Below, piece by piece: positions 4,193-43,628 of a stretch of DNA of 64,000 nucleotides. Position 1 is the stretch's first letter. The number at the start of each line of letters is the position of its first letter. Source of the DNA: a virus. The translations under genes were made by a program, and so were the position numbers. The notes under the pieces are model-generated. The model was not told the origin of the DNA. It saw only the letters and a list, made by a program, of their open reading frames with translations, and ran no database searches. Location of the stretch: the IMG/VR virus record IMGVR_UViG_3300029305_004190. One strand, written 5' to 3'.

Positions 4193-4265
4193 GGGAGAGT
4201 GGCGCAATCGGTTAGCGCAAGAAGTAGTTTGTCTGTTGTTGGTTCGAGTCCAACCTCTCCCACCA
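4193..4265 (+). tRNA. tRNA-like gene with intact acceptor, D and T arms but no Watson-Crick anticodon stem (possible pseudo-tRNA or non-canonical tRNA)
   Basis: GGGAGAG/CTCTCCC acceptor, GCGC-AATCGGTTA-GCGC D arm, GTTGG-TTCGAGT-CCAAC T arm, ACCA 3' end; region 4220-4237 cannot form a 5-bp anticodon stem. Confidence 0.4.
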
Positions 4266-12016: not shown

Positions 12017-13159
12017 ATGAATATGATTTATATCACAGTAAAACAATCTCCGATATATCATCAAATGACTATCGAAGAACTCCTTATGCAGGATTTCACT
12101 GCTCCTGCAGTTATAAATCCGAATTTGACAAACACAAAAACATACGAAGTGGAGTATGTTAGCGAAAGATTCATGCGCAGACTTGATGTGGATATGCTTA
12201 TTGCAAAGCTCGTCCAGTTCAATCAGTCGGTTGAATCGCTGCGCCAACAGAAACGCAGCGACCTGTATGAAACATTCTATATTCCTAAAAAGTCAGGTGG
12301 TCTTAGAAGAATCGACGCACCCAAAGCTGAACTTATGGATGCGTTGCGTCGGCTCAAGACCATCTTGGAAGAAGATTTCCATGTTCTCTATCATACATCA
12401 GCATTTGCCTATGTAAAAAAGCGTTGTACAGTTGATGCAGTTAAGCGCCACCAAGCCAACAACAGTAAGTGGTTTGGCAAGCTCGACCTCCACGATTTCT
12501 TTGGAAGCACCACTTTGGATTTCGCTATGTCTATGCTTTCAAAAATCTTCCCTATCAGCGAAGTGGTTAAGGTGGAGACAGGCAGAAATGCATTGCAATG
12601 CGCGCTCGAACTTGCTTTCCTTAATGGCGGACTTCCGCAGGGGACTCCCATTTCACCGCTCATCACAAATGTTATGATGATTCCGGTTGATTTCAAGTTG
12701 GCAAATACCTTGAGAGAGTTTGAACAGCAGAAATTTGTGTACACCAGATATGCGGATGACTTTATCATTTCGTCCAAATATGACTTTGATGTACATAAGG
12801 TCGAAGAACTTGTTGTTTCAACTCTCAAGGATTTCAATGCTCCATTTTCAATCAACGCTTCTAAAACAAGATATGGCTCATCTGCAGGACGAAATTGGAA
12901 TCTCGGTGTAATGCTGAATAAAGACAACGAGATTACAGTTGGTCACAAAAAGAAACACCAGCTTCAGTCTATGATGTTCAACTATATCACCGATAAACGT
13001 AAGGGCATCGAGTGGAGTCGTGAAGACATCATGGTAATGCAGGGACTGCATAGCTATTATCGCATGGTTGAAGAAACAGTGATTGATGCAATCGTAAAAC
13101 ATATCAATGAAAAGATGGGCGTAGATGTATTGCGCCTTATCAAAGAAGATTTAAGATAA
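12017..13159 (+). CDS. Reverse transcriptase, retron-type (RT-only, 380 aa)
   Basis: FYIPKKSGGLRRIDAP (RT motif 1/2), LDLHDFFGST (motif 4), GLPQGTPISPL (motif 5), YTRYADDFII (YxDD); C-terminal region aligns by eye with retron Ec86 RT around the VTG region (here NLGVMLN) and downstream (IMVMQGLHSYYRMVE ~ HVRGWLSFILSVD); GGAGG SD. Confidence 0.85.
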   Translation: MNMIYITVKQSPIYHQMTIEELLMQDFTAPAVINPNLTNTKTYEVEYVSERFMRRLDVDMLIAKLVQFNQSVESLRQQKRSDLYETFYIPKKSGGLRRIDAPKAELMDALRRLKTILEEDFHVLYHTSAFAYVKKRCTVDAVKRHQANNSKWFGKLDLHDFFGSTTLDFAMSMLSKIFPISEVVKVETGRNALQCALELAFLNGGLPQGTPISPLITNVMMIPVDFKLANTLREFEQQKFVYTRYADDFIISSKYDFDVHKVEELVVSTLKDFNAPFSINASKTRYGSSAGRNWNLGVMLNKDNEITVGHKKKHQLQSMMFNYITDKRKGIEWSREDIMVMQGLHSYYRMVEETVIDAIVKHINEKMGVDVLRLIKEDLR

Positions 13160-13747: not shown

Positions 13748-14434
13748 ATGATATATGTAACCGGTGATATCCACGCACACATCGACATCGGGAAGTTAAA
13801 TACACAGAGATTTCCCCAACAAAAATCATTGACTAAATCGGACTATCTCATCGTATGCGGTGATTTTGGACTGGTATGGGATAACTCCAAAAGTGACCTG
13901 TATTGGCGAGATTGGCTGTCAGATAAACCATTTACCACATTGTGGGTGGATGGAAACCATGAGAACTTTGAACTGTTATATCAGTTCCCGCTTGAAGATA
14001 AATTCGGCGGAAAGGTTCGTGAAATCGCACCCAGCATATATCATTTGGATAGAGGACAAGTCCTCACCATTGACAATAAGACGTTCTTTGTTATGGGCGG
14101 TGCTGCTTCGCATGACAAAGAATATCGCAAGGAACATATATCTTGGTGGAAAGATGAGTTGCCAACCGTCGCAGAGATGGAACGAGGTATCAAAGCACTT
14201 GAAGCCAATAACTGGACAGTTGATTTCGTTATTTCACATTGCGCTCCGCGCTCTGTCCAGACAATGATTGCCAGTTGGTATGAAAGTGACCCATTGGTCA
14301 GCTTCTTTGAACGAGTTCGAACAGACCTTAATTTTAAGAAGTGGTTCTTTGGTCACTATCATGTTGATAAACAGCTTAACGAGCAGTTTATTGCACTGTA
14401 TAACAATATTATTCCTCTCGATACAGTTTGTTGA
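13748..14434 (+). CDS. Calcineurin-like metallophosphoesterase
   Basis: GDIHAH, CGDFG, GNHE motifs in canonical order. Confidence 0.8.
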   Translation: MIYVTGDIHAHIDIGKLNTQRFPQQKSLTKSDYLIVCGDFGLVWDNSKSDLYWRDWLSDKPFTTLWVDGNHENFELLYQFPLEDKFGGKVREIAPSIYHLDRGQVLTIDNKTFFVMGGAASHDKEYRKEHISWWKDELPTVAEMERGIKALEANNWTVDFVISHCAPRSVQTMIASWYESDPLVSFFERVRTDLNFKKWFFGHYHVDKQLNEQFIALYNNIIPLDTVC

Positions 14435-14515
14435 CAAAAATGAAATCTGGAACATATTGTGGCGCAGTTGTTTAATGACTATTTGATAGAATGTGTTATT
14501 GCATATAACACATAC

Positions 14516-14589
14516 AGGGGTGTGGTGTAATGTAACATAGCGGTCTCCAAAACCGCCTGATTGGGGTTCGAATCCCTACACCCCTGCCA
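14516..14589 (+). tRNA. tRNA-Trp (anticodon CCA) with atypical D loop lacking GG
   Basis: AGGGGTG/CACCCCT acceptor, GCGGT-CTCCAAA-ACCGC anticodon arm, TGGGG-TTCGAAT-CCCTA T arm, G-CCA; D arm GTGT-AATGTA-ACAT. Confidence 0.65.
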
Positions 14590-14836
14590 GTTGTCGGGTC
14601 GCTCCCGACTGATGTGAGAGTGTGAGCAGGAATCCTCACGGAGAATAACAATGTCCGCTGAAAACAGTATGAATGCGTACCACGACAGGTCAATGAATCT
14701 GTCACGCTTAACATACCGACAATCTAAGCGGGAACTGCTCCAAAAAAGACATTTTAACTGGATGTCGCGCCCTGCTCGGGAGAAAGAGCCGCCACCCGGA
14801 GGGCGACCATGGTGAAAAAAACATCCGGGGCACTAA

Positions 14837-14931
14837 TGGGGTATCGCCAAGCGGTAAGGCATCAGACTTTGACTCTGACAAGAGCGGTGTAATGCCCTCG
14901 CTCGCCGGTTCGAATCCGGCTACCCCAGCCA
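14837..14931 (+). tRNA. 95-nt tRNA with anticodon TTG (Gln) but an unusually long (~24 nt) variable arm
   Basis: TGGGGTA/TACCCCA acceptor, GCC-AAGCGGTAA-GGC D arm, TCAGA-CTTTGAC-TCTGA anticodon arm, variable arm GAGCG-12nt-CGCTC, GCCGG-TTCGAAT-CCGGC T arm, G-CCA. Confidence 0.55.
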
Positions 14932-14957
14932 ATAAAAATCAAGAAAGGAATTGAACA

Positions 14958-15515
14958 ATGAAACCTTATGATGTAGGCTTAATATGTGGACGATTCCAGA
15001 CTTTTCATAAAGGACATGAGAAGTTGGTGGAAACAGGCTTGATGCTCTGTGACCGTCTTCTCATTCTCATCGGAAGCTCTCAGGAATGTGGTACAGAACG
15101 TAATCCATTAAATATCAATACAAGAACCAAGATGCTGAAGATGGTATATGGTGATGACCCAAACATTATGATATATGGTCTCCCTGACCTGTCAAATGAA
15201 AATGATATCCGTCCTGAATGGGGACGTTATTTGCTTGCCAACGCAGACCGATACATCTATAAGAATCCCGATGTCATGATTTATGGCAACGATGAGAGTA
15301 GAAGCGCTTGGTTTGCAAAAGAAGATTTGAAATATACAACAGAACTTATCATCAATAGAAGCGAGCTTCCTATCTCCGCGACTATGTTAAGAAAATACAT
15401 GGTTGAGGATAACCGCAAGGCTTGGATGGAGCTTGTGAATCCAAAGCTTCATAAGATGTATGATGAACTTCGCCGTGAACTCATGACAGTTGAATTCTAT
15501 CAACAAATGTCATAG
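14958..15515 (+). CDS. nadM: Nicotinamide/nicotinate mononucleotide adenylyltransferase (NMNAT, NadM/NadR-type cytidylyltransferase fold)
   Basis: ICGRFQTFHKGHEKLV (HxGH nucleotidyltransferase motif), 185 aa, C-terminal ISATMLR; GGAA SD. Confidence 0.8.
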   Translation: MKPYDVGLICGRFQTFHKGHEKLVETGLMLCDRLLILIGSSQECGTERNPLNINTRTKMLKMVYGDDPNIMIYGLPDLSNENDIRPEWGRYLLANADRYIYKNPDVMIYGNDESRSAWFAKEDLKYTTELIINRSELPISATMLRKYMVEDNRKAWMELVNPKLHKMYDELRRELMTVEFYQQMS

Positions 15516-15674
15516 TCAATAAACAAGGGTTTACAGTAATGACTCCAAACCAGAAACCCTGAGACCTACCATGTAGGGCGACAGCGATTGTGTAAGGCAA
15601 CGTATTGCGCTGTTAGGGAGTTATGTGAAAGTCAAGCCATCCAATTCTGGATGTTCCGTTATAGCCGGCATCAT

Positions 15675-15768
15675 GGAGAGTTAAGCATAATTGGTACTGC
15701 AGCGGATTGCTAATCCGTTCGCCGTCATTTAGTGCGGCGTGGAGGTTCGAGTCCTCTACTCTCCGCCA
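15675..15768 (+). tRNA. tRNA-Ser (anticodon GCT), type II
   Basis: GGAGAGT/ACTCTCC acceptor, GCGGA-TTGCTAA-TCCGT anticodon arm, CGCCG-TCATTTAGTG-CGGCG variable arm, GGAGG-TTCGAGT-CCTCT T arm, G-CCA. Confidence 0.75.
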
Positions 15769-15771
15769 AGT

Positions 15772-15847
15772 GCTGGAATAGTTCAGTTGGCAGAACAGGG
15801 CATTCGTACTGCTCAGGTCTTCGGTTCGACTCCGAATTCCAGCTCCA
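15772..15847 (+). tRNA. tRNA-Thr (anticodon CGT)
   Basis: GCTGGAA/TTCCAGC acceptor, GTTC-AGTTGGCA-GAAC D arm, GGGCA-TTCGTAC-TGCTC anticodon arm, TTCGG-TTCGACT-CCGAA T arm, T-CCA. Confidence 0.8.
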
Positions 15848-16050
15848 TTTAGGAGAGGCTATACTCCGAGGTACCCTTGAGGTCTGGAGCAACAAGGAAA
15901 AAGAAAGTCCCCAGAATGTTTTACGGTGTTCAGACAAACCGCCATAGAGCAGAAGTGTTTAGGGTCAGTGCTCCCATATAGCAAGTGTGGAGAGACGGTA
16001 AGGACAAGGCGTGGAAATCTGCAGAAGCGCGAAAAACCCTTCACAAATAC

Positions 16051-16126
16051 GCTGGTGTAGCTCAGATGGTAGAGCACTGGTTTTGTACTCCAGATGTCGC
16101 GGGTTCGATGCCTGTCACCAGCTCCA
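16051..16126 (+). tRNA. tRNA-Thr (anticodon TGT)
   Basis: GCTGGTG/CACCAGC acceptor, TAGCTCAGATGGTAGAGC D arm, anticodon loop TTTGTAC, GCGGG-TTCGATG-CCTGT T arm, T-CCA. Confidence 0.8.
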
Positions 16127-16129
16127 TAC

Positions 16130-16205
16130 GCTGATGTAACTCAGTTGGTAGAGTAGCGGATTTTTAATCCGTCAGTCGCAGGTTCGACTCCTGTCATCGG
16201 CACCA
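16130..16205 (+). tRNA. tRNA-Lys (anticodon TTT)
   Basis: GCTGATG/CATCGGC acceptor, AACTCAGTTGGTAGAGT D arm, GCGGA-TTTTTAA-TCCGT anticodon arm, GCAGG-TTCGACT-CCTGT T arm, A-CCA. Confidence 0.8.
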
Positions 16206-16355
16206 CCCCTCAAAGGGGATGAACATAGTGTACGTGAACCTACAGTTCACACCTTCCTCTCTCATATATTGTCAAGCATTGATGTGATGCTTACGGTGAA
16301 GATGGCTTCGAACCCATCGGCAATATATGCTCCCTTTAACCGTATTCCTTCCTAT

Positions 16356-16431
16356 ATGGGCGTAGCGCAGTTGGAAGCGCACCTGCCTTGGGGACAGGGG
16401 GTCGTGGGTTCGAACCCCACCGCCCATACCA
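16356..16431 (+). tRNA. tRNA-Pro (anticodon TGG)
   Basis: ATGGGCG/CGCCCAT acceptor, GCGC-AGTTGGAA-GCGC D arm, anticodon loop CTTGGGG with G37, GTGGG-TTCGAAC-CCCAC T arm, A-CCA. Confidence 0.75.
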
Positions 16432-16453
16432 TAACTGAATAAGGAGAGTCGAT

Positions 16454-16942
16454 ATGCTTTTATATCACGGAACACCGAACATTTTTAGCGAACCGTCTCT
16501 CGCAAAGTGTAAGCCGCACCGAGATTTCGGATGCGGCTTTTATCTTGCCCAAAATTTTCAAGACGCTTTACCGCTCGCAATCAAGCATTCACGCATCGGA
16601 TATGTATATACCTATGTGCTCAAAGACACTGACGACCTCAACGTCATCACTTTGGATGGATATTCCGATGAGTGGCTTGAATTAGTTGTGCGGTCAAGGC
16701 TCGGCTGCCCTCCAAATGCCGATTTGGTAATCGGGAATACAGCAGGAGGCGGCGCAAACCTTAAAGATAAGTTCACTAAGCTGAGGAATAGTGATGCATC
16801 GGTTAAAGAAGTAATCAACCTCATGCGAGATGAGCTGACAAAAACAAGCCTTGGAATTCAGTATTGTTTTCTGACTCCGAAGGCTTTATCAAAACTTCAA
16901 AAAATCAATGGTGAAATGTTTGAAAGGGAGGCAATAAGATGA
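16454..16942 (+). CDS. Hypothetical protein (162 aa) with N-terminal LYHGT...GFY motif (possibly ADP-ribosyltransferase-like H-Y-E fold; unverified)
   Basis: AAGGAG SD; motif order YHGT / GCGFY / later acidic residues resembles the H-Y-[ED] ART signature but cannot be confirmed by eye. Confidence 0.5.
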   Translation: MLLYHGTPNIFSEPSLAKCKPHRDFGCGFYLAQNFQDALPLAIKHSRIGYVYTYVLKDTDDLNVITLDGYSDEWLELVVRSRLGCPPNADLVIGNTAGGGANLKDKFTKLRNSDASVKEVINLMRDELTKTSLGIQYCFLTPKALSKLQKINGEMFEREAIR

Positions 16943-17478
16943 CCAGAGCCGAGTTTTTAGATAACATTACCGATTGGGGCGAGCTTAAAGAGTTCTGCTC
17001 TGACTGGGAATGCGACTACTGTGACGACATCTACGATGAAGACGGGAGAGACGACCAAATCAACGAGGACATCGGTGATTATAGTTGCGATTACTCATGG
17101 GATTCCCTCAGAGATTTGCTGAATGATATCCCTTCTGGGTACGATTATTACTGTAGAAGTTCTGCGTTCAACTGGGAAGAAGCTGACGACGAAATGTTCG
17201 AACGCTACAAGTCTGATGTCTGCGAGTGGGCAGACAACGGCGGCGTTTGGGATGAAGATGAGGAAGATGAGGATATCTTCGAAGAAGAGGATGATTTCTT
17301 TGCAGAAGAACCTGACGAAACACCCGTCGAAGACGAAGACTTCTCCGTTGGCGACCTGATTGGTATGTGTAGTGTAGCATTCGTTACAATCCAAAAGGAT
17401 AATATGCGCAAGATTCAGGAAGATAAAAAGGCATTCGACGAGTTCGTTGATGTGAATATTCCGAAAGTTCTGAAATAA
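16939..17478 (+). CDS. Extremely acidic Cys/Trp-containing protein (179 aa), candidate DNA mimic / anti-restriction factor
   Basis: Runs such as DEDEEDEDIFEEEDDFFAEEPDETPVEDED; start overlaps previous stop (ATGA). Confidence 0.55.
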   Translation: MTRAEFLDNITDWGELKEFCSDWECDYCDDIYDEDGRDDQINEDIGDYSCDYSWDSLRDLLNDIPSGYDYYCRSSAFNWEEADDEMFERYKSDVCEWADNGGVWDEDEEDEDIFEEEDDFFAEEPDETPVEDEDFSVGDLIGMCSVAFVTIQKDNMRKIQEDKKAFDEFVDVNIPKVLK

Positions 17479-17771
17479 TGATTCATTACACGTAAGTGTT
17501 TTGATATAGGTTACCGTGTAGATTGACTTTGCTTTACATATATTAAGTAGCGAAAAGGCAAAGTATCTTCTCGCTTATGGCAGAAGAATGAATTCGTGTT
17601 CTTCATTTTTATCATCGCATCTTGAGCGTTATTCTTTATTTAATCGGGGATTAAATAAAGAAAAACACCAAGATTGCTCGCTAAAAATGTCACGTAGTGC
17701 ACACGCCTCGCCTTTTGTTAGACTTGGGCTCGGCGTGCAGACGGTAACAAATGATTAACGGAGGTGAGTGC

Positions 17772-17927
17772 AATGATAGAAAAGAATGTGAAAAAGCAGG
17801 AAGCAAAACGCAGGCGTAATTTCTGGACTTGTGCTCGCCCTGTTACTCAAATCGTCCCAAATAAAAAGGCTTACAATCGTAAGCGTGCAAAAGATACAAT
17901 AAATAAGAAAGGTGGAGGATTCGAATG
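17772..17927 (+). CDS. Small basic protein (51 aa), not in supplied ORF track
   Basis: ATG preceded by AACGGAGGTGAG SD; MIEKNVKKQEAKRRRNFWTCARPVTQIVPNKKAYNRKRAKDTINKKGGGFE; stop overlaps start of next gene. Confidence 0.3.
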
Positions 17928-18479
17928 AATAAGGTTCTTGTTGTTGTCGATATGCAGAAAGACTTCGTGGATGGAGCGCTTGGCAGCAAGGAGGCAGTTG
18001 CAATCGTTCCAAAAGTGGTTGAGAAAATCAATGGATTTGAGGGGCTTTTTGCGGTAACGCATGACACTCATACCAACGCTTATCTCGATACGCAGGAAGG
18101 AAAGAATCTGCCGGTAGTTCACTGTGTCGAACAGAGCGACGGTTGGCAGTTGACACCCCCTGTATACGATGCGCTGAACAATCGCTTTAACGACGGAGTT
18201 TTGCCGCAGTTTTTCTACAAGCCTACATTTGGCTCCGTCGAGTTAGCTGACTGGCTGCTCAACGTGAACAAAAAGACTGCCGTTGACGAAGTCGTTCTCA
18301 TCGGTTTATGTACCGATATTTGCGTTATCTCAAACGCAATGCTTATCAAGGCATTTTTACCCGAGGTCAAGGTAACAGTGGATGCGGCGTGCTGCGCCGG
18401 TGTCACTCCTGAAAGCCACAACAATGCACTGGCTGCAATGAAGATGTGCCAGATTAACATCGAAAACTGGGAGGGCTAA
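17925..18479 (+). CDS. pncA: Isochorismatase-family cysteine hydrolase, probable nicotinamidase (PncA-like)
   Basis: VVVDMQKDF N-terminal motif, catalytic Cys context LIGLCTDICV, 184 aa; GGAGG SD. Confidence 0.75.
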   Translation: MNKVLVVVDMQKDFVDGALGSKEAVAIVPKVVEKINGFEGLFAVTHDTHTNAYLDTQEGKNLPVVHCVEQSDGWQLTPPVYDALNNRFNDGVLPQFFYKPTFGSVELADWLLNVNKKTAVDEVVLIGLCTDICVISNAMLIKAFLPEVKVTVDAACCAGVTPESHNNALAAMKMCQINIENWEG

Positions 18480-18480
18480 T

Positions 18481-19284
18481 ATGATTTCTGTTAACAATCA
18501 GCCTATCGACTTTACTTCGTTTCCCGATGGAACAACATCGTTTCGTTATGAGCCGCAGGAAGATTCCGATTTTACAATCGAATGGCGGTATGACAGCGAT
18601 AAAGAGTGTATCCTGCTGTGGTATCTTACCAAGCACATCAGGCAGTGTTACCTGAATGCCAATATCACTCTCGTTCTTCCGTATATCCCCAATGCCAGAA
18701 TGGACAGGGTTAAAAACAAGGACGAAGTATTCACGCTGAAATACTTTGCAGAAATCATCAACATCCTGCACTTCAATGAAGTTTATGTGTGCGACCCACA
18801 CTCCAGCGTCTCAACAGCTCTTCTGGATAGAGTCAAGGTAATCGACGCCAAGGAAAATATCGAAGAAGTTCTTCGAATTCTCGATAGCAATCAGAAGAAA
18901 GATATCCTTCTTTGCTATCCTGACGAAGGTGCTGCAAAGCGCTATTCAGAACAGCTTAACGCCGAGTATGTCTTCTGCATTAAGCACCGCGACTGGCGAA
19001 CCGGAAAGATACAGAGGTTGGAGCTCACGTCCCCCGAAACAGTTAAGGGCAGAAATATTCTTATCGTTGATGATATCTGTTCACGCGGCGGCACGTTCAC
19101 TTTTACCGCACAGGCATTGAAAGATGCAGGTGCAAAAGAGGTTTTCCTGTACGTTACACACTGCGAAAACACTATCGAAAAGGGTTCAGTTCTCACTGAT
19201 GGGCTGATTTCTCATGTGTTTACCACGAGCAGTATTTACCGTGGAAATCATGCTAATGTAACTGTATTCAAAGGGGGATATTGA
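18481..19284 (+). CDS. Ribose-phosphate pyrophosphokinase (PRPP synthetase)-like protein; candidate ADP-ribose pyrophosphate synthetase (Adps) of a phage NAD+ reconstitution pathway
   Basis: Type I PRTase PRPP-binding loop ILIVDDICSRGGTF in C-terminal half, Prs-like two-domain length (267 aa); coupled to pncA-like gene. Confidence 0.7.
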   Translation: MISVNNQPIDFTSFPDGTTSFRYEPQEDSDFTIEWRYDSDKECILLWYLTKHIRQCYLNANITLVLPYIPNARMDRVKNKDEVFTLKYFAEIINILHFNEVYVCDPHSSVSTALLDRVKVIDAKENIEEVLRILDSNQKKDILLCYPDEGAAKRYSEQLNAEYVFCIKHRDWRTGKIQRLELTSPETVKGRNILIVDDICSRGGTFTFTAQALKDAGAKEVFLYVTHCENTIEKGSVLTDGLISHVFTTSSIYRGNHANVTVFKGGY

Positions 19285-19682
19285 TGGGCATCGAAGAAGT
19301 TGAAGCATTATGTAAAGAAAGAAATCTTCCATATAAAGGCGAATTTCTCAAGTCGCTGAGTGATGAACAGCGAGATGCAGGATATATAAAATTCAATATT
19401 CCTGATATCGAAAATCTCGACAGTGCAAACGGTGAAGGTGTCTGGGGATGGGTTTCTCCAGAAGATAAACTAAAACATGATGATGACCGTTATCATGGAG
19501 AGATTACCGCAATCTTGTGTAATACACCGCTTAACTTCTATGGTATTCTTTGGTGGGGCTCTGAGGTCAAGATTACTTGCCATGGAAGTTCTCGCCCCAC
19601 ATTGTCAAAACAATGGGTAACAGACAATATTCTGAATGCGCCGTGGTTTGACAATAATGACGACAATATCGAAGAAGATTAA
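19281..19682 (+). CDS. Hypothetical protein (133 aa)
   Basis: ORF overlapping upstream stop (ATGA), acidic C-terminus. Confidence 0.55.
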   Translation: MMGIEEVEALCKERNLPYKGEFLKSLSDEQRDAGYIKFNIPDIENLDSANGEGVWGWVSPEDKLKHDDDRYHGEITAILCNTPLNFYGILWWGSEVKITCHGSSRPTLSKQWVTDNILNAPWFDNNDDNIEED

Positions 19683-19706
19683 CAATATCCCAAGGAGGGC
19701 AAACAT

Positions 19707-20912
19707 ATGATTGAGTTGCAAGGCAAGTATGCAACTGCGAAGGTGTTCACCGATGTGGTTGATAATGAATCAATCTCACAGGTAATCAACCTTTTGAATC
19801 AACCCTACATAGAGGGCAGCAAAGTTCGTATGATGCCGGACATCCATGCTGGAGCTGGATGCACCATCGGCACCACTATGACAATCAGTGATAAGATTTG
19901 CCCGAATCTTGTTGGCGTTGATATCGGATGCGGAATGGAAACCATCCGCATCAAGGAAACTTTCATCGAGCCGCAGAAGCTGGATAAAGTTATCCGTTCA
20001 GAAATTCCATCCGGTTTTGAAATCCGTAAGAATCCGCACCGTTTCGCTAAAGGCATTGATTTATCTGCATTGTATTGCGCCAAGAAGATTAAGCTCGACC
20101 GAGCATATAACAGCATTGGCACACTTGGTGGAGGTAACCACTTTATCGAAGCGAACAAAGACGAAGATGGTCATATCTACATCGTAGTTCACTCCGGTAG
20201 TCGCCATCTCGGTTTGGAGATTGCTAATCTGTATCAGGAGGCGGCGTATGCTTCACTCACCTCTTACAGCAAGGATGAAATCGAAAAGATTATCGAGGAA
20301 CTGAAGGCTGCGGGGCGGCAGAAAGAAATTCAGAATGTTCTGAAAAACTTGAAAGCCAAGCATTCTCCGATTCCGAAACCTCTTGCTTATGTTGAGGGAG
20401 AACTGTTCGAGCAGTATCTGCACGATATGCGCATTGCTCAACAGTACGCCAACCTCAACAGAAAAGCAATGATGGACACTATCGTGAAAGCGATGGGTTT
20501 CCACGTTGAAGAACAGTTTACCACAATTCATAACTACATTGATGTGGAAAATATGATTCTGCGCAAGGGAGCTGTATCGGCTCAGGCTGGCGAACGCCTG
20601 CTGATTCCTATCAATATGCGTGACGGTAGTTTGGTGTGCACTGGTAAAGGCAACGAGGATTGGAACTGTTCCGCACCTCACGGTGCCGGTCGGTTAATGA
20701 GCCGAAGCGAGGCAAAGCAAACCTTCACTGTTTCTGAGTTCAAGAAACAGATGGACGGTATCTACACCACTTCTGTTGGACGAAGCACACTCGATGAATG
20801 CCCGATGGCATATAAGAATATGGAAGATATCGTGAAAAACGTAGAACCAACTGTCACGATTGATTCCGTTATCAAGCCTATCTACAACTTCAAGGCGGGT
20901 GATGAAGAATGA
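19707..20912 (+). CDS. rtcB: RtcB-family RNA 3'-phosphate ligase
   Basis: VGVDIGCGM, GGGNHFIE, VHSGSRHLG, HNYIDVEN, CSAPHGAGR motifs in RtcB order; AAGGAGGG SD. Confidence 0.9.
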   Translation: MIELQGKYATAKVFTDVVDNESISQVINLLNQPYIEGSKVRMMPDIHAGAGCTIGTTMTISDKICPNLVGVDIGCGMETIRIKETFIEPQKLDKVIRSEIPSGFEIRKNPHRFAKGIDLSALYCAKKIKLDRAYNSIGTLGGGNHFIEANKDEDGHIYIVVHSGSRHLGLEIANLYQEAAYASLTSYSKDEIEKIIEELKAAGRQKEIQNVLKNLKAKHSPIPKPLAYVEGELFEQYLHDMRIAQQYANLNRKAMMDTIVKAMGFHVEEQFTTIHNYIDVENMILRKGAVSAQAGERLLIPINMRDGSLVCTGKGNEDWNCSAPHGAGRLMSRSEAKQTFTVSEFKKQMDGIYTTSVGRSTLDECPMAYKNMEDIVKNVEPTVTIDSVIKPIYNFKAGDEE

Positions 20913-21151
20913 TTGTTTTTCTGGTTTTCTTTTTCATCTTCCTGTACATCCTTATAGGCGCGGCTGTCACATATTACCTACATTATTTGTACAGCAATAA
21001 AGCGTGCTATAAACCCAAAGAAACATATGATTCCATTTCAACCCCTTCATACTGTGTGGTGATAGGAATTTTCTGGCTCTTTGCAGCACCGTTTGCTTTT
21101 GCATTATATTATTCACGTTACGGATTTCCGCAATCCAAAGAAAAGAGGTAA
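20909..21151 (+). CDS. Small hydrophobic membrane protein (80 aa)
   Basis: Two predicted TM segments (MIVFLVFFFIFLYILIGAAV..., IGIFWLFAAPFAFALYY); overlaps upstream stop. Confidence 0.45.
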   Translation: MIVFLVFFFIFLYILIGAAVTYYLHYLYSNKACYKPKETYDSISTPSYCVVIGIFWLFAAPFAFALYYSRYGFPQSKEKR

Positions 21152-21157
21152 CATCAA

Positions 21158-22672
21158 ATGATTCAATACAATCCACTTTTGTGTCTGGACTTCTACAAGA
21201 CTGCTCATGCGGAACAGTACCCGCAGAGCTTGACCAAGATGGTTTCTTACTACACTCCTCGTATGAGCCGACTGGCTGATACGGAAAAGGTAACTCTGTT
21301 CGGATTGCAGGCATTCATTCAGGAGTATCTTGTCGATGCGTTCAATGAGAACTTTTTTGGTAAGCCCTACCCGAAGGTTCTTGAGGAGTACAAACGTGTC
21401 CTCGGTGCAACAATCGGTACGACTGGTGTCGGCGAAAAGCGCATCGAAAAACTTTACAACCTTGGCTATCTCCCCCTGAAGATTCGTGCGGTGCCTGAGG
21501 GTACACGAACCAATATCAAGGTTCCGCAAATTGAAATTTCCAATACACACCCCGACTTCGTATGGCTTGTCAACAGTATCGAAACGATGTTGTCCAGTAC
21601 AATGTGGCACACGCAGGTTTCCGCAGAAGTTGGCTACAGATACCGTCAAATCGTCAATGAATATGCAGATGAAACCTGTGATGACAGCGTTGCTCGTGCA
21701 AGACTTCTTGGCGATTTTTCAATGCGTGGTCAGGAAAGTGTTGAGAGCGCAACAAAGAGTTCTGCGGCATTCTGCTTGAGCTTCCTCAACACGGCAACAG
21801 TCCCTGCAATTCTGTGGCTGGAAGACAATTACGATTGTGACTGTGAAAAGGAGCCCGTTGCCTTTGGCGCTCTTTCCACAGAGCACAGTGTTATGTGTTC
21901 CAACTATGCTGTAGATGGTGATGAGATTACACAGATTCGAAGACTTCTGACAAGCATCTATCCTCACCAGAATTTCTCGATGGTCAGCGACAGCTACGAT
22001 TACTGGAATCTGGTTGACAATCTTTTGCCACAGCTCAAGGACGAAATCCTTGCTCACGATGGTTTCATTTCCATTCGCGGAGACAGTGGTGACCCTGTCG
22101 ATGTTGTTACCCAGACAGTATTTAAGCTGTGGGATATCTTCGGCGGTACCGTAAACAGCAAGGGGTATAAAGTTCTCGACCCTCACGTCAAAGCCATCTA
22201 TGGCGATAGCATTACACCACAGAGATGCGAGGCAATCTATAAGATTCTAAAAGAGAACGGCTTCGCAATCAACAATGTTTCTCTTGGCGTTGGTTCATTC
22301 TCAATGCAGTGCCTTGAAACCATTACAATGGAGCATATGGGTAACTGTGCGATGGGTGTCAGAACTCATTATTCACCGTATACTCGTGACACGTTCGGCA
22401 TTGCGGTTAAAGCTACTTATGCCGAAGACGAGAACGGCAATCCCATCATGATTTTCAAGAACCCCAAGACCGACAGCGGAAACTTCAAGAAGTCGCAGCG
22501 TGGTTGTTGCCGTGTATATAAGACAGATAATGGATATGCGTATGAGGACGGCTTAACTTGGGCAGAAGCTCAGGAAGAGAACGAACTGATTACGGTATTT
22601 GAGAACGGTGAATTTGTCAAGCGCTACACGCTGAACGAAGTTCGCCAGAATCTCCATGGGGGTAATTTCTGA
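21158..22672 (+). CDS. nadV: Nicotinamide phosphoribosyltransferase family protein (NAMPT/NadV, or the homologous Namat)
   Basis: N-terminal NPLLCLDFYKTAHAEQYP (NAMPT D-x-YK-x-H-x-x-QYP signature), 504 aa typical NAMPT length, GDS/ GVGS phosphoribosyltransferase segments; GAGG SD. Confidence 0.85.
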   Translation: MIQYNPLLCLDFYKTAHAEQYPQSLTKMVSYYTPRMSRLADTEKVTLFGLQAFIQEYLVDAFNENFFGKPYPKVLEEYKRVLGATIGTTGVGEKRIEKLYNLGYLPLKIRAVPEGTRTNIKVPQIEISNTHPDFVWLVNSIETMLSSTMWHTQVSAEVGYRYRQIVNEYADETCDDSVARARLLGDFSMRGQESVESATKSSAAFCLSFLNTATVPAILWLEDNYDCDCEKEPVAFGALSTEHSVMCSNYAVDGDEITQIRRLLTSIYPHQNFSMVSDSYDYWNLVDNLLPQLKDEILAHDGFISIRGDSGDPVDVVTQTVFKLWDIFGGTVNSKGYKVLDPHVKAIYGDSITPQRCEAIYKILKENGFAINNVSLGVGSFSMQCLETITMEHMGNCAMGVRTHYSPYTRDTFGIAVKATYAEDENGNPIMIFKNPKTDSGNFKKSQRGCCRVYKTDNGYAYEDGLTWAEAQEENELITVFENGEFVKRYTLNEVRQNLHGGNF

Positions 22673-23139
22673 TGTCAATCAAGATTATTGACGGCGACCT
22701 GTTCAACACAAAAGCAAAGTATATCTGCCATCAGGTGAATTGCCAAGGTAGGATGGGGAGTGGTGTTGCTAAACAGGTTCGAGTCAAATTCCCGGAAGCA
22801 TACAAGGCATACTCTGACAGATGCAACGGCGAAAAGAGTATGAAAGACCCGCTCTGGACACTGGGCAAAGCACAGTTTGTGAGATGCAGCAACGGTGTTA
22901 CTATCGTAAATATGTATTCGCAAGGTAATTATGGCTACGATGGTAAACAGTATACAGACTATTCAGCTTTCCAGAATTGTCTGCACGAAATCCGAAAAAC
23001 AGTTCCCACTGATGCTGTGATTGCAATGCCGTATAAAATCGGATGCGGTCTTGGCGGCGGCGATTGGAACATTGTCATGGAGCTAATCGAAAAAGAACTT
23101 CCCGACCACACCGTAGAGTTGTGGAGAAAAGAGGCGTAA
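22672..23139 (+). CDS. Macro-domain (ADP-ribose binding/hydrolase) protein
   Basis: ICHQVNCQGRMGSGVAKQV and later CGLGGGDW glycine-rich loops characteristic of macro domains; 155 aa. Confidence 0.7.
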   Translation: MSIKIIDGDLFNTKAKYICHQVNCQGRMGSGVAKQVRVKFPEAYKAYSDRCNGEKSMKDPLWTLGKAQFVRCSNGVTIVNMYSQGNYGYDGKQYTDYSAFQNCLHEIRKTVPTDAVIAMPYKIGCGLGGGDWNIVMELIEKELPDHTVELWRKEA

Positions 23140-23140
23140 T

Positions 23141-23896
23141 ATGCTTGTTGACCCCAAGAAAACAAAGGACGATGTAGTCCAGTGGATTCGCAATTACTTT
23201 GCTGAAAATGGCAAAGATTGTTCAGCAGTTATCGGTATCTCCGGTGGAAAGGACAGCAGTATTGTAGCCGCTCTTTGCGTCGAAGCACTTGGTGCGGATA
23301 GGGTTGTCGGTGTTTTAATGCCAAATGGCAGGCAGAAAGACATTGCTGACTCAACTCGTCTTGTGGAAGCGCTCGGAATCCAAAGCATTGTTGTGAACAT
23401 CGGCGGTGCATACTGCAACATGGTTGATGTTCTTGGACGTACAGTTCCGGGTGGAATCAGCGAACAGGCAAAAATCAATCTTCCTCCCAGACTCAGAATG
23501 GCAACACTCTATGCAGTAGCTCAGTCCATTCCGGGTGGCGGTAGAGTTGCAAATACTTGCAATCTTTCGGAAGATTTCGTTGGTTACTCCACGAAATTCG
23601 GTGACAGTGCAGGTGACTTCAGTCCTCTTGCCAACCTTATGGTTCACGAAGTTGTACAGATTGGTCACGAGCTTCCCATCCCCGCTGACCTTGTTGATAA
23701 AGTGCCGTCCGATGGGCTGTGCGGTAAAACCGATGAAGATAACCTCGGTGTAAGTTACCGCGAAATTGACAGCTACATTGAAACAGGAACCTGTGCGGTA
23801 GCCGCGCATGAGCATCGCATTGAGGATTTACACAGAAAGAATCTTCATAAGGTAAATCCCATGCCTGCGTTCAGCAAATATAGTGTTCAATCGTAA
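23141..23896 (+). CDS. nadE: NH3-dependent NAD+ synthetase (NadE)
   Basis: PP-loop SGGKDSS, overall NadE architecture (251 aa), coupled to macro gene. Confidence 0.85.
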   Translation: MLVDPKKTKDDVVQWIRNYFAENGKDCSAVIGISGGKDSSIVAALCVEALGADRVVGVLMPNGRQKDIADSTRLVEALGIQSIVVNIGGAYCNMVDVLGRTVPGGISEQAKINLPPRLRMATLYAVAQSIPGGGRVANTCNLSEDFVGYSTKFGDSAGDFSPLANLMVHEVVQIGHELPIPADLVDKVPSDGLCGKTDEDNLGVSYREIDSYIETGTCAVAAHEHRIEDLHRKNLHKVNPMPAFSKYSVQS

Positions 23897-23909
23897 GGTG
23901 AAACACAAG

Positions 23910-25196
23910 ATGTTGGAAACAATCGCGCAAATCTATTGCCTCCAGAATATGGTGGGTTCAATCAAAAAGATGGAAGTATTACGGGAGTTCAAGGATAACG
24001 AGGACTTCCGTAAACTTTTATATTATGCTCTGAATCCTATGTTAACCTACAAGATTTCAGAGCACACACTTCGCAAAGAAGTAGAGTACGACCCAACAAT
24101 TACGCTTACACTGACAGATATTTATACCATATGCGAAACACTCTCAAACCGCAAGGCTTTGGATGATGCCACCGTGTATCAGGTATGTACATATCTGCAG
24201 TGTATGTGTGACCCTGAAGAAGCTAAGTTTTACATTAAGCTCCTTTCCAAAACACTTCGCCTTGGAGTAACAGCAAAAACGGTCAATAAAGTTATTCCCG
24301 GATTGATACCCGAATGGGAAGTACAACAGGCATATCCCATTGACAAATATCCTGTTAAAAACGACACCGAGTTTTGGCTCACACAGAAGCTGAACGGAGT
24401 TCGGGCTACATATTATAAAGGAAAACTTTATGCGAGAAGTGGTGTTCCGTTCAAAGGGCTTGAACACATAACAAGTGTGCTTGAGTGGTTGGAGAGTGAA
24501 GCGAGCTATCCGCAAGTTTTTGACGGAGAGCTGACACTGAAAAACAAAAACAGCCTCAGCGACAACGAAGCTTTCCGCATAGCCACGGGCATTATAAACT
24601 CATCAGATGATGATAAAACGGCAATTTGCTATACAGTTTTTGATGTTCTTCCTGCAAACGAGTTTGAGGGTGGAGAAAGTAAAGAGTTGTATGGTAAAAG
24701 ACGTGCTCAGCTTGAAGACATCAGGGCTATACTTCCTGATGAATGCCCGGTATATATTTTGCCCGTTCTGTATCACGGCAGTAACTCAGCCAAGATTGAT
24801 GAATATCTTGAGCAAATGGTTCGTGAAGACAAAGAGGGACTGATGCTTAATCTCGATGTTCCGTACAAGTGTAAACGACATAACGGAATATTGAAGGTCA
24901 AGCGTTTCTACGCAATGGACTTGCGAATCACAGGTTGCGAAGAAGGAACAGGAAGACTGGCTGGAACTTTGGGTGCTTTTGTACTTGATTATAAAGGAAA
25001 CGAGGTTCGTGTTGGTTCCGGTTTCACCGACGAACAGCGTACAGAATTCTGGGCAAATCGTGAAAGCATTATTGGACTTCTATGCGAAGTAAAATACAAA
25101 GAAATATCCTACGATAAAAACACCGGCGCAGATAGTCTGCAGTTTCCGGTGTTTGTTACGTTAAGGACAGATAAAGATGATGTGAGCTTCGCTTAA
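23910..25196 (+). CDS. lig: ATP-dependent DNA ligase
   Basis: Motif I KLNGVRA (KxNG), motif IV EGLMLN, motif V LKVK; ATG 8 nt after AAGGTGA (track lists GTG 23883 overlapping nadE stop). Confidence 0.8.
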   Translation: MLETIAQIYCLQNMVGSIKKMEVLREFKDNEDFRKLLYYALNPMLTYKISEHTLRKEVEYDPTITLTLTDIYTICETLSNRKALDDATVYQVCTYLQCMCDPEEAKFYIKLLSKTLRLGVTAKTVNKVIPGLIPEWEVQQAYPIDKYPVKNDTEFWLTQKLNGVRATYYKGKLYARSGVPFKGLEHITSVLEWLESEASYPQVFDGELTLKNKNSLSDNEAFRIATGIINSSDDDKTAICYTVFDVLPANEFEGGESKELYGKRRAQLEDIRAILPDECPVYILPVLYHGSNSAKIDEYLEQMVREDKEGLMLNLDVPYKCKRHNGILKVKRFYAMDLRITGCEEGTGRLAGTLGAFVLDYKGNEVRVGSGFTDEQRTEFWANRESIIGLLCEVKYKEISYDKNTGADSLQFPVFVTLRTDKDDVSFA

Positions 25197-27824: not shown

Positions 27825-28907
27825 ATGCGTAAATTAGCGTCAATCAGACAGATTGCCAATATCCGTCCAATTCCCGGTGCCGACCGAATTGTTGTGGCAC
27901 AGGTTGACGGTTGGGAATGTGTCGTTCAAAAAGATGAATTCCATGTAGGCGACCATGTCGTTTATGTCGAAGTCGATTCGGTAATGCCTGAACGTCCCGA
28001 GTTCGAGTTTTTGCGTGACCGAAAGTTCCGAGTGAGAACCATTAAGCTTCGTGGTCAAGTCAGCCAAGGATTGGTTCTTCCTCTTTCAATTCTTCCCGAG
28101 GGCGATTACTCCTTAGAGGATGATGTTACGGAGTTACTTGGTGTTACCAAGTACGACCCGGAAGCACAGCAGGAGGCGATGCTGCTTCAGAAACAGCCTG
28201 CTCCTCCCAAGAATGCTCTCATTCGATTCCTGATGCGATTCAAGTGGTACCGCAAGCTCTTTATGAAATCCAAACGCAAGGGCGGATTTCCTGAGTGGAT
28301 TACTAAGACGGACGAGACTCGCATTCAGAATCTGACCACACTTTTCAACCATGAACGTGACAAGGGAACGAAATTTTCAGTCACTGAAAAGGTGGATGGT
28401 CAGTCAGCTACATATTATCTTCGTAAAATCTCCAAGAGAAAATATGAGTTCGGCGTATGCAGTAGAAATATCTACCTTGGTACACCGGATAACAGTTCCT
28501 ACTGGACGGTTGCAAAACAGTATGACATCGAGAAAGCGCTCAAGAAGCTCATCGGTGATAATAATACCATTGTAATGCAGGGCGAAATCTGCGGCACTGG
28601 AATCCAAGGAAACAAGTACCACATCAATGGCTACGAGCTGTTTGTTTTCAATCTGATTTTCCCCGACCGTAAGTGTACAACCGCCGAAATTGCAGAACTT
28701 TGCGCCCCCCTCGGACTCAAGACAGTACCTATTCTGGAAGAAGAAAAGGTGCTGCCGCAGACCATTGCCGAAATGGTGGAGTATTCAAAGGACAACTCTG
28801 TTGTGCGTAAAGAGCAGAAGCGAGAGGGTGTTGTGGTTCGCAACATCAGAAACAATATCAGCTTTAAGGTAATCAATCCTGATTTCCTTTTAGCGGAAAA
28901 GGACTAA
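27825..28907 (+). CDS. Putative RNA ligase (covalent nucleotidyltransferase, Rnl-like)
   Basis: KVDGQS lysine-adenylate motif I (KxDG) mid-protein, later EGVVV and K-rich motif V-like region; N-terminal OB-like segment. Confidence 0.55.
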   Translation: MRKLASIRQIANIRPIPGADRIVVAQVDGWECVVQKDEFHVGDHVVYVEVDSVMPERPEFEFLRDRKFRVRTIKLRGQVSQGLVLPLSILPEGDYSLEDDVTELLGVTKYDPEAQQEAMLLQKQPAPPKNALIRFLMRFKWYRKLFMKSKRKGGFPEWITKTDETRIQNLTTLFNHERDKGTKFSVTEKVDGQSATYYLRKISKRKYEFGVCSRNIYLGTPDNSSYWTVAKQYDIEKALKKLIGDNNTIVMQGEICGTGIQGNKYHINGYELFVFNLIFPDRKCTTAEIAELCAPLGLKTVPILEEEKVLPQTIAEMVEYSKDNSVVRKEQKREGVVVRNIRNNISFKVINPDFLLAEKD

Positions 28908-42605: not shown

Positions 42606-43628
42606 ATGACGATTGAACAAATCAAGGAAATGGTCTCTGGGGCGGATTATGATTTTCTGCGTACAAATGAGCACCTTCGTAATCGAACCATCTTTCTGAC
42701 GCTTGGTGGAAGCTACTCATACGGTACAAACATTGAAACGTCGGATGTAGATGTACGAGGATGTGCGCTGAATAGTCCGTCAGATTTGCTTGGTCTTACT
42801 AACTTTGAGCAGGTGGTAAACGAAGCAACAGACACCACGGTGTACAGTTTTAATAAGCTCATTGGCTTATTGTTAAACTGCAATCCTAACACGATTGAAA
42901 TGTTGGGTTGTAAGCCGGAGCATTACTTTTTCATCACAGATATTGGGCAAAGCATGATTGACAATCGTAAGCTGTTTCTCTCCAAGCGGGCTGTTAATTC
43001 CTTTGGAGGGTACGCCACACAACAGCTTCGCCGATTGGAAAATGCTCTTGCACGAGATAAGCTTTCGCAAGCTCGTAAAGAAGAGCATATTTTGAAATCA
43101 ATGCAAAGTTCTGTTAAGGCTTTTGAGGAAAAGTACACTTCTTTCGAACACGGAAGCCTCACACTATATACCGCTGACAGTACACGGGATGATTTGGATA
43201 GAGAAATTTTCGCTGATATCCATATAGACAAATATCCTGCACGTGAGTTCAATGGAATGGTCAATGCGCTTGCCAATGTGCTTGGCACATATGAAAAATT
43301 GAATCATCGAAATCACAAGAAAGATGACAATCACTTGAACAAGCACGCTATGCATTTGGTTCGTCTTTATCTTATGTGTCTTGATATTCTCGAAAAAGAA
43401 GATATCATCACATATCGAGAGAACGACCATGATTTGCTGATGAGCATCCGCTCGGGTGCATTCCAACTCGAAGATGGGACTTATCACCCCGAGTTTTTCA
43501 AAATGATTGATGATTTTGAAAAAAGGTTGGCTTACGCAAAAGAGAATACCTCGTTACCAGAACATCCAAACATGAAGCTTGTGCAAGAATTTGTGATGGA
43601 TATCAATAGGAGGTCGCTTGATGTATAA
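42606..43628 (+). CDS. Pol-beta-superfamily nucleotidyltransferase with helical C-terminal domain (CD-NTase/cGAS-DncV-like or OAS-like signature)
   Basis: LTLGGSYSYGTNIETSDVDVRG = GS-x9-13-[DE]h[DE]h nucleotidyltransferase motif; AAAGGAG SD. Confidence 0.6.
   Translation: MTIEQIKEMVSGADYDFLRTNEHLRNRTIFLTLGGSYSYGTNIETSDVDVRGCALNSPSDLLGLTNFEQVVNEATDTTVYSFNKLIGLLLNCNPNTIEMLGCKPEHYFFITDIGQSMIDNRKLFLSKRAVNSFGGYATQQLRRLENALARDKLSQARKEEHILKSMQSSVKAFEEKYTSFEHGSLTLYTADSTRDDLDREIFADIHIDKYPAREFNGMVNALANVLGTYEKLNHRNHKKDDNHLNKHAMHLVRLYLMCLDILEKEDIITYRENDHDLLMSIRSGAFQLEDGTYHPEFFKMIDDFEKRLAYAKENTSLPEHPNMKLVQEFVMDINRRSLDV

Follow-up and report, generated by a model that had tools for sequence, protein, structure and literature searches.

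The stretch of viral DNA analysed here (IMG/VR virus record IMGVR_UViG_3300029305_004190; 64,000 nucleotides, referred to below as the window) carries, between positions 14958 and 23896, a cluster of genes for NAD+ synthesis and ADP-ribose (ADPR) processing. We describe its core as a putative module of five genes for rebuilding NAD+. The window is phage DNA, as shown by its genes for a DNA polymerase, a DnaB helicase, a CCA-adding enzyme and a Hoc-like protein and by its relatives, viral contigs from IMG/VR that are about 100-170 kb long. A sequence-only reading had proposed a phage NAD toolkit composed of an NMN adenylyltransferase (NMNAT), an isochorismatase, a Prs-like protein, a 504-amino-acid (aa) NAMPT-family enzyme, a Macro-domain protein, NadE and a NADAR-domain protein. 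All of these open reading frames (ORFs) were found where that reading had placed them, on the + strand and with matches to the expected families, which bears out the toolkit:

14958-15515, + strand: cytidylyltransferase-like, NMN adenylyltransferase-like protein, 185 aa; motifs GRFQTFHKGH and ISATMLR
17925-18479, + strand: PncA-like nicotinamidase (isochorismatase fold), 184 aa; Pfam Isochorismatase, E 1.9e-20
18481-19284, + strand: predicted Adps-type, Prs-like ADP-ribose pyrophosphokinase, 267 aa
21158-22672, + strand: Namat-lineage transferase, 504 aa; NAMPT_N and NAPRTase domains
22672-23139, + strand: Macro-domain protein in the Adpp position; Pfam Macro
23141-23896, + strand: NadE, NH3-dependent NAD synthetase, 251 aa; TIGR00552
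32711-33292, + strand: NADAR-domain protein (ADPR processing); Pfam NADAR, E 7.6e-27; phrog_1017, 163 bits

From 17925 to 25196 all genes are co-directional and abut or overlap one another, the Macro ORF overlapping the Namat stop codon by a single base. The Adps and Namat genes lie 1.9 kb apart on the same strand, with an RtcB gene and two small ORFs between them; in most relatives they are adjacent. Clustering of the NAD genes is not due to chance, since 77 of the 80 unique related loci described below have the same core set. When the 9-kb span was searched by megablast among 50,697 phage records, no nucleotide match was returned, and all comparisons were therefore made at the protein level.

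Depletion of NAD+ is among the commonest antiviral strategies of bacteria. Phages answer it through the NAD+ reconstitution pathways NARP1, NARP1-AP, NARP2 and NARP3 (10.1101/2024.02.11.579819; 10.64898/2026.01.28.702374; PMC13464706). NARP1, found in phages Bas63, SPbetaL1 and FADO, consists of Adps, a Prs-like enzyme that converts ADPR to ADPR pyrophosphate (ADPR-PP), and Namat, a NAMPT-like enzyme that uses ADPR-PP and nicotinamide (Osterman et al. 2024, 10.1101/2024.02.11.579819). NARP1-AP, from Vibrio phage Gary, is NARP1 with the addition of Adpp, a Macro-domain ADPR-1''-phosphate phosphatase directed against the aRES defence; some 15% of NARP1 operons include a Macro gene (10.64898/2026.01.28.702374). 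NARP2 combines a true Nampt with Nmnat, and no phage was found with both NARP1 and NARP2 (10.1101/2024.02.11.579819). NARP3, from phage Bas30, pairs a PnuC transporter with a NadR-like enzyme (PMC13464706).

The Prs-like protein was compared with a hidden Markov model (HMM) trained on the Adps sequences from 63 canonical NARP1 loci, which scored it at 278 bits and E. coli Prs at 97 bits. The window protein matched phrog_619 with 258 bits, was 37.6% identical to SPbetaL1 Adps, and fell below the cut-off of all NCBIfam Prs models, as did the validated SPbetaL1 Adps. With 267 aa, compared with 315 aa for Prs, it has a short C-terminus; truncation at this end, through loss of the alpha11-alpha12 module, is a signature of Adps (PMC13586617). 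A PDB sequence search with the protein retrieved Prs structures only. Judged by these comparisons, the Prs-like protein is assigned to the Adps family and not to Prs.

The best solved relative of the 504-aa enzyme was SPbetaL1 Namat (PDB 9w5x, whose sequence is identical to that of the phage protein), with a score of 414 bits and 44.7% identity, whereas true NAMPTs from Xanthomonas and human scored 150-173 bits. SPbetaL1 and FADO, both experimentally validated NARP1 phages (10.1101/2024.02.11.579819), supplied its closest named relatives in the phage collection, and in a neighbour-joining tree drawn without KVP40-type Nampt the enzyme stood beside Namat sequences. The HMM scores, the short C-terminus, the Prs models below cut-off and the 414-bit Namat match together place the pair in the Adps/Namat lineage and not in the Prs/Nampt lineage. 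NARP1, which the sequence-only reading had offered as an alternative, thus proved to be the correct lineage. NCBIfam model NF006629 ('nicotinate phosphoribosyltransferase') matched the window enzyme, and its name is uninformative here because the model also captures the validated SPbetaL1 Namat.

Seven residues of SPbetaL1 Namat contact nicotinamide (F189, R192, D215, A242, R306, D13' and Y15'), and D215 hydrogen-bonds the amide (PMC12774641). Five of the seven are kept in the window enzyme. The two that differ are exactly those facing the amide, D215 being replaced by Ala213 and A242 by Ser240, and the same replacement was found in 83/83 close relatives. Sixteen of 20 NAD contacts are identical, the changes being D215A, A242S, A362S and Y396C, the last followed by an insert. 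Contacts that are kept include the catalytic His and its region, the ribose and phosphate ligands and most of the AMP/adenine contacts; the residues that handle ADPR-PP (R40, D361, F392, T398, R399 and D400) are conserved, and the clamp loop has the stacking residue expected of NARP1, an Arg, Lys or Tyr in third place, window Arg38 aligning with SPbetaL1 Arg40. The equivalent of Asp215 in human NAMPT, Asp219, is reported to determine substrate specificity (PMC7096376, after Khan et al.). BLASTP showed no significant similarity between the window enzyme and the PncB of Bacillus phage G, and no PncB-type protein was found among the window ORFs scanned.

The clamp-helix motif of the window enzyme is broken. 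The consensus reads GSFTYQYNTRD; the window enzyme has GSFSMQC, then a 22-aa insert, then YTRD, so that the Phe at position 3 and the TRD are retained and the Tyr at position 7 is Cys. The full Namat motif is intact in other members lacking the Asp (below, non-Asp), for example GAYTYQYVTRD in Phass-1. Three further Namat homologues of 778-822 aa (P0170, P0188 and P0192) carry long insertions beginning with Cys (GSFCVTPDT..., GSYCVSRGT...) directly after GS[FY] inside this motif. By sequence these look like inteins in the active-site region, and similar elements may occur in many other Namat homologues of 800-1,100 aa.

Pocket type was then compared with gene linkage. Two IMG/VR scans were carried out, one seeded with window-type enzymes and the other with the SPbetaL1 and FADO Namat proteins. 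For 160 loci with 10-kb flanks, six-frame ORFs were searched with the window proteins and the Namat homologues were aligned, giving 136 unique Namat sequences:

Asp215/Ala242 Namat, 56 unique loci: Adps in 56, NadE in 0, PncA-like in 0, Macro in 11
Non-Asp Namat (Ala/Ser or Ser/Ser), 80 unique loci: Adps in 80, NadE in 79, PncA-like in 78, Macro in 55

PncA-like, Adps and NadE genes occurred together, within a few kb, in 77 of the 80 non-Asp loci; the other three were each missing a single gene, at least two being on short contigs. This linkage was maintained across at least five gene orders, among them PncA-Adps-Namat-(Macro)-NadE, Adps-Namat-Macro-NadE-PncA and the window version with RtcB inserted, and the same gene set was present in Phass-1, a complete human-gut phage genome, and in MT835544. 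Residues 215 and 242 covaried: among 150 representatives clustered at 50% identity, the pairs were D/A in 97, A/S in 35 and S/S in 18, with almost no others. A neighbour-joining tree built without columns 215 and 242 separated non-Asp from Asp sequences by one inferred change, and the association therefore reflects one ancient switch kept across a large and diverse clade, not repeated convergence. A single protein cluster of this branch has 3,374 member sequences. Of the 50,697 phage records, 48 had a NadE homologue and 2,042 a Namat or Nampt homologue.

PncA and NadE thus go obligately with one subfamily of Namat, whose pyridine pocket has been remodelled. The sequence-only reading had regarded them as making the NAD toolkit fuller than usual; both are indeed present, but they are not simple additions, being tied to non-Asp Namat (77/80 loci, compared with 0/56 for the Asp type). 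This linkage to the pocket points to another chemistry, one that would pass through nicotinate and nicotinic acid adenine dinucleotide (NaAD).

Two observations concern the breadth of the non-Asp group. Three IMG/VR loci (L140, L141 and L145) have a second kind of non-Asp pocket, Ser215/Ser242, with an intact clamp (GSYSFQYNTRD), and carry PncA-like, Adps, Macro and NadE genes. The D219S mutant of NAMPT accepts nicotinic acid, and the Ser at position 215 in these loci matches that change. Phass-1 (L001) belongs to a 'code 15' clade of Caudoviricetes, has a suppressor tRNA (CTA) and nevertheless encodes the PncA-Adps-Namat-NadE module, which therefore occurs in phages of different genetic codes.

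The proteins encoded around the transferase were also compared with known families and structures. The best PDB match of the PncA-like protein was the pyrazinamidase/nicotinamidase of P. horikoshii (1ILW), and its triad (D9/K99/C133) and metal ligands (D47/H49/H66) were at least 97% conserved in 100 module homologues. NadE scored 169.5 bits against TIGR00552 (cut-off 63.65) and has the SGGKDS PP-loop. The Macro protein matched phrog_335, a family annotated 'phosphatase', with 162 bits; its stronger PDB matches were BT1257 and DarG-type macrodomains, and its match to an ADPR 1''-phosphate phosphatase was weak and partial (E 1.5e-4). The Macro gene is enriched in non-Asp modules over canonical ones (55/80 versus 11/56). 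A connection of the Macro and NADAR proteins to DarT, also raised in the sequence-only reading, is possible. NadE-like genes of the marine T4-like phages were considered as a related module and rejected: in Pelagibacter phage HTVC008M (L175) and Synechococcus phage S-SSM7 (L176) they sit in sugar-modification clusters, among carbamoyltransferase, methyltransferase and nucleotide-sugar genes, which suggests a role other than NAD synthesis.

We lean towards interpreting the five core genes as an NAD+ reconstitution module that descends from NARP1-AP but has been rerouted by way of deamidated intermediates, ADPR-PP being joined to nicotinate. A host NADase would split NAD+ into ADPR and nicotinamide, and the PncA-like enzyme would convert nicotinamide to nicotinate and NH3. 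Were the host to produce ADPR-1''-phosphate, the Macro protein would strip the phosphate and feed the resulting ADPR into the Adps step, in which ADPR and ATP would give ADPR-PP and AMP. The altered Namat, with the amide-binding Asp changed to Ala and the neighbouring Ala to Ser, would then form NaAD and pyrophosphate from ADPR-PP and nicotinate, and NadE would convert NaAD, ATP and NH3 to NAD+. The ammonia released in the PncA step is what NadE would consume. The net reaction would be ADPR + nicotinamide + 2 ATP -> NAD+, one ATP more than canonical NARP1; the route would contain two irreversible steps and could also use free nicotinate. PncA, Adps, the altered Namat and NadE are exactly sufficient for such a route, and no nucleotide adenylyltransferase is conserved with the module, both of which support the use of ADPR-PP and nicotinate. 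The literature was searched incompletely, so that prior publication is possible, and no paper was found in which NARP1 or ADPR-PP is connected with NadE, nicotinamidase, nicotinate or NaAD.

Opinion is evenly poised on the broader proposition that a large clade of gut-phage NARP1 systems, probably in phages infecting Clostridia, switched its pyridine substrate, so that the Namat descendant would be a nicotinate ADP-ribose transferase making NaAD directly, with a nicotinamidase upstream and NadE downstream.

Several points weigh against this interpretation. Family membership, the pocket residues, their covariation and the gene linkage were observed directly, and from the last of these and the two pocket residues we infer the choice of substrate; the remaining substrate assignments and an anti-defence purpose are likewise deduced. 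The clamp motif is split by a variable insert of 9-60 aa, with loss of Tyr396, in the window's own subgroup, and these changes could have weakened the preference for ADPR-PP there. Canonical Namat retains activity with phosphoribosyl pyrophosphate (PRPP) in vitro, converting PRPP and nicotinamide to nicotinamide mononucleotide (NMN) (PMC12774641), and a route through nicotinic acid mononucleotide (NaMN) is therefore chemically possible. The PncA-like protein scored 36 bits against the NCBIfam nicotinamidase model, whose cut-off is 174. The linkage has to be taken as a single evolutionary event and not as several independent ones, and the samples are biased, the non-Asp loci coming mostly from gut metagenomes and the Asp-type loci being relatives of SPbetaL1 and FADO. 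Finally, spending an extra ATP has no obvious advantage.

Some of these points bear on the chief rival, a PRPP-based Preiss-Handler salvage assembled from recruited parts. The Prs-like protein would make PRPP, the non-Asp enzyme would make NaMN from it, host NadD or the phage NMNAT would adenylate NaMN to NaAD, and NadE would finish the pathway. The pocket change predicts use of nicotinate with either ribosyl donor, the in vitro PRPP activity of canonical Namat and the disrupted clamp of the window's subgroup fit this scheme, and an adenylyltransferase is present in the window. Clusters of pncB-nadD-nadE have moreover been annotated as 'Preiss-Handler' in gut jumbo phages, by gene name only (PMC11662467). 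We nevertheless consider it unlikely. The Prs-like protein falls in the Adps family, both by its HMM score and by its truncated C-terminus, and the scheme needs an adenylyltransferase, none of which is conserved with the module; the sole one found in the window is of the NMN-preferring, archaeal/NadM type and not NadD. Most AMP/adenine contacts of Namat are kept, and several non-Asp members have an intact clamp.

Bacillus phage G shows what a real Preiss-Handler set looks like. Its locus (gp275-gp283; L177, record positions 200123-207372) encodes a Nudix protein, an isochorismatase, a true PncB (653 bits, NF006695), a KptA/Tpt1-like phosphotransferase, a true NadD (TIGR00482) and NadE, and gives this jumbo phage the whole of the classical deamidated pathway to NAD. 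The window module resembles it and the annotated gut clusters in having a nicotinamidase and NadE and in a deamidated route through NaAD. It differs in that phage G has true PncB and NadD and no Adps, whereas the window has a Namat derivative and Adps and no NadD.

It is also conceivable, though we think it improbable, that Adps, Adpp and Namat operate as an ordinary NARP1-AP that makes NAD+ from ADPR and nicotinamide, PncA and NadE being separate helpers that feed host salvage or clear nicotinamide. Adps, Namat and Macro do occur in the arrangement published for that system (10.64898/2026.01.28.702374), the Namat-like enzyme retains its catalytic His together with its contacts to ribose and phosphate, and SPbetaL1 Namat carrying D215A keeps some activity, reduced 8-fold (PMC12774641). 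The amide-binding Asp, however, is gone from the whole clade and its loss covaries with A242S, from which it follows that selection fixed a different pocket. Independent helpers, moreover, would not track the pocket residues as closely as PncA and NadE do.

The same evidence delimits how far the window module departs from its presumed ancestors. Like NARP1, it has the same two protein families and would rebuild NAD+ from ADPR by way of ADPR-PP; shared too are the catalytic His, the contacts to ribose and phosphate and most of those to AMP. Unlike NARP1, it has Asp215 changed to Ala, Ala242 to Ser and a 22-aa clamp-helix insert, its Adps and Namat genes are separated by RtcB and two small ORFs, it is tied to PncA-like and NadE genes, neither of which occurs in any of the 56 sampled canonical loci, and its predicted transferase product is NaAD instead of NAD+. 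It shares with NARP1-AP a Macro gene directly beside Namat, from the phage 'phosphatase' macro family phrog_335, and to this adds a nicotinate-type pocket, PncA and NadE; the Macro protein is likened to Adpp by layout and family, not by direct comparison with the Gary protein.

A further alternative is that the genes are a general metabolic booster, raising NAD+ for phage replication and repair enzymes with no specific tie to immune NAD+ depletion. NAD synthesis genes of gut jumbo phages have been interpreted in this way (PMC11662467), and NARP2 raises NAD+ even when no defence system is present (10.1101/2024.02.11.579819). We regard this alternative as improbable, given that ADPR and ADPR-1''-phosphate, the substrates of Adps and Macro, are products of NAD+ cleavage and not general precursors, that the phage's own DNA ligase is ATP-dependent, and that canonical Adps/Namat modules are anti-defence by experiment (10.1101/2024.02.11.579819). 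The module is most plausibly aimed at NAD-depleting immunity, as the sequence-only reading had suggested.

That the window encodes NARP2 as in Vibrio phage KVP40, with Nampt making NMN from PRPP and nicotinamide and Nmnat adenylating it to NAD+, is very improbable: NAMPT-family and NMNAT-like genes do occur in one genome, which had led to the original NARP2 match, and Prs could supply PRPP, but the enzyme is of Namat lineage (414 versus 150-173 bits) and lacks the nicotinamide-binding Asp, the NMNAT gene is variable and is missing from relatives with 99%-identical Namat, and Adps, which is absent from NARP2 phages (10.1101/2024.02.11.579819), always accompanies the enzyme here. With NARP3 the module shares the goal of restoring NAD+ under immune depletion, and the window NMNAT-like protein is distantly related to the NadR-like enzyme (PDB 9x6f, E 2.3e-8); the chemistry is otherwise different, and the 185-aa window protein has no nicotinamide riboside kinase domain. 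No PnuC was identified in the window, no search aimed at PnuC having been made.

The remaining genes in and around the span, none of them listed in the sequence-only reading, are as follows:

15675-16431, + strand: five tRNA genes, inside the span
16454-16942, + strand: DUF3990 protein, E 5e-23
16939-17478, + strand: very acidic, Asp/Glu-rich ORF, 179 aa; no family match
19281-19682, + strand: ORF, 133 aa; variable slot between Adps and RtcB
19707-20912, + strand: RtcB RNA ligase; Pfam RtcB, E 1.2e-66; inserted between Adps and Namat
20909-21151, + strand: predicted two-helix membrane protein, 80 aa, from translation
23883-25196, + strand: ATP-dependent DNA ligase; Pfam DNA_ligase_A_M, OB_2, A_N; overlaps the NadE end

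NMNAT, RtcB, NADAR and the DNA ligase are lineage- or strain-specific companions of the core. All PDB matches of the NMNAT-like protein were NMN adenylyltransferases; it scored below the cut-offs of the NCBIfam NMNAT models (58.6 versus 127 bits) and gave no match to NadD models. Its gene is a strain-variable accessory outside the conserved core, because it is absent from phages with 99%-identical Namat, where the slot holds other genes or none, and was not found within 10 kb in 78/80 related loci. RtcB occupies the same position in L005, L006, L010, L074 and L178-L180, whereas most other modules lack it. The 133-aa ORF had no Pfam, NCBIfam or PHROG match and is replaced by a 54-aa ORF in near-identical relatives; the 80-aa membrane ORF had no family match and is kept in a few close relatives. 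The DNA ligase gene directly follows NadE in L178-L180 and in several IMG/VR loci, and its product may relieve dependence on the NAD-dependent ligase of the host. NADAR is loosely linked; only few relatives have it at a distance of 10 kb or less.

RtcB is also one of several RNA repair genes in the window, together with an Rnl-type RNA ligase with a PHA02142 OB domain (27825-28907) and a CCA-adding tRNA nucleotidyltransferase (43618-44982, + strand), a kit that suggests a counter to anticodon nucleases. Twelve tRNA genes lie in two arrays between 4193 and 16431 (+ strand). One, at 4193-4265, received a two-base anticodon call and is not assignable, and the tRNA-Gln (14837-14931) and tRNA-Ser (15675-15768) genes are unusually long.

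Upstream of the module, a 380-aa reverse transcriptase (RVT_1; phrog_2825; 12017-13159, + strand) is kept about 5-10 kb away in many relatives. It is not obviously part of a diversity-generating retroelement, as no direct repeats of at least 50 bp that could form a template/variable pair were found anywhere in the window. Between it and the NAD genes lies a calcineurin-like metallophosphoesterase (phrog_1649; 13748-14434, + strand), kept in several relatives, which could process nucleotides, ADPR or RNA ends. The slot from 14434 to 16454, bounded by the metallophosphoesterase and DUF3990 genes, is hypervariable among near-identical phages: it contains NMNAT and tRNAs in the window, Hydrolase_2 and PDDEXK_5 genes in L178, and almost nothing in L179. 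The DUF3990 family we take to be grouped with the ADP-ribosyltransferase fold; if so, the gene would be another NAD-using gene beside the module. The acidic 179-aa protein is kept in some ten related loci, where its gene immediately precedes the PncA-like one, and could be a DNA mimic or defence inhibitor.

Near the module, an Rfam scan detected neither an NAD+ riboswitch nor any other regulatory RNA; its matches were tRNAs and, far upstream, a RAGATH-16 RNA (219-291, + strand; 86 bits, gathering score 65.6), a structured RNA family with no assigned function. Promoter and terminator scans gave matches no more numerous than in shuffled sequence, and the operon was not delimited by them. Assemblies of Lachnospiraceae and Oscillospiraceae contain close copies of the module, one of them on a 368-kb scaffold from a cultured Oscillospiraceae isolate; most other host-side copies come from metagenome bins, into which phage contigs may simply have been sorted. 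Clostridia are the probable hosts.

Current annotation lumps both kinds of enzyme together as 'nicotinamide/nicotinate phosphoribosyltransferase'. If the proposed substrate switch is true, the residues at 215 and 242 would serve as a code by which nicotinamide-type and nicotinate-type enzymes could be told apart, and the window enzyme would offer enzyme engineers a natural NaAD-forming transferase. The module raises the question of what pressure lies behind the costlier deamidated route; possibilities include host nicotinamidase activity or competition, a nicotinate-rich gut, avoidance of re-cleavage of the product, a defence that removes nicotinamide, and the pull exerted on the pathway by two irreversible steps. 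For phages, the module would represent a fourth, deamidated route of NAD+ reconstitution and a new biochemical branch, in which NaAD is made directly from ADPR-PP and nicotinate and without NaMN, previously unknown enzymatically, and which appears to be abundant in phages of the human gut.

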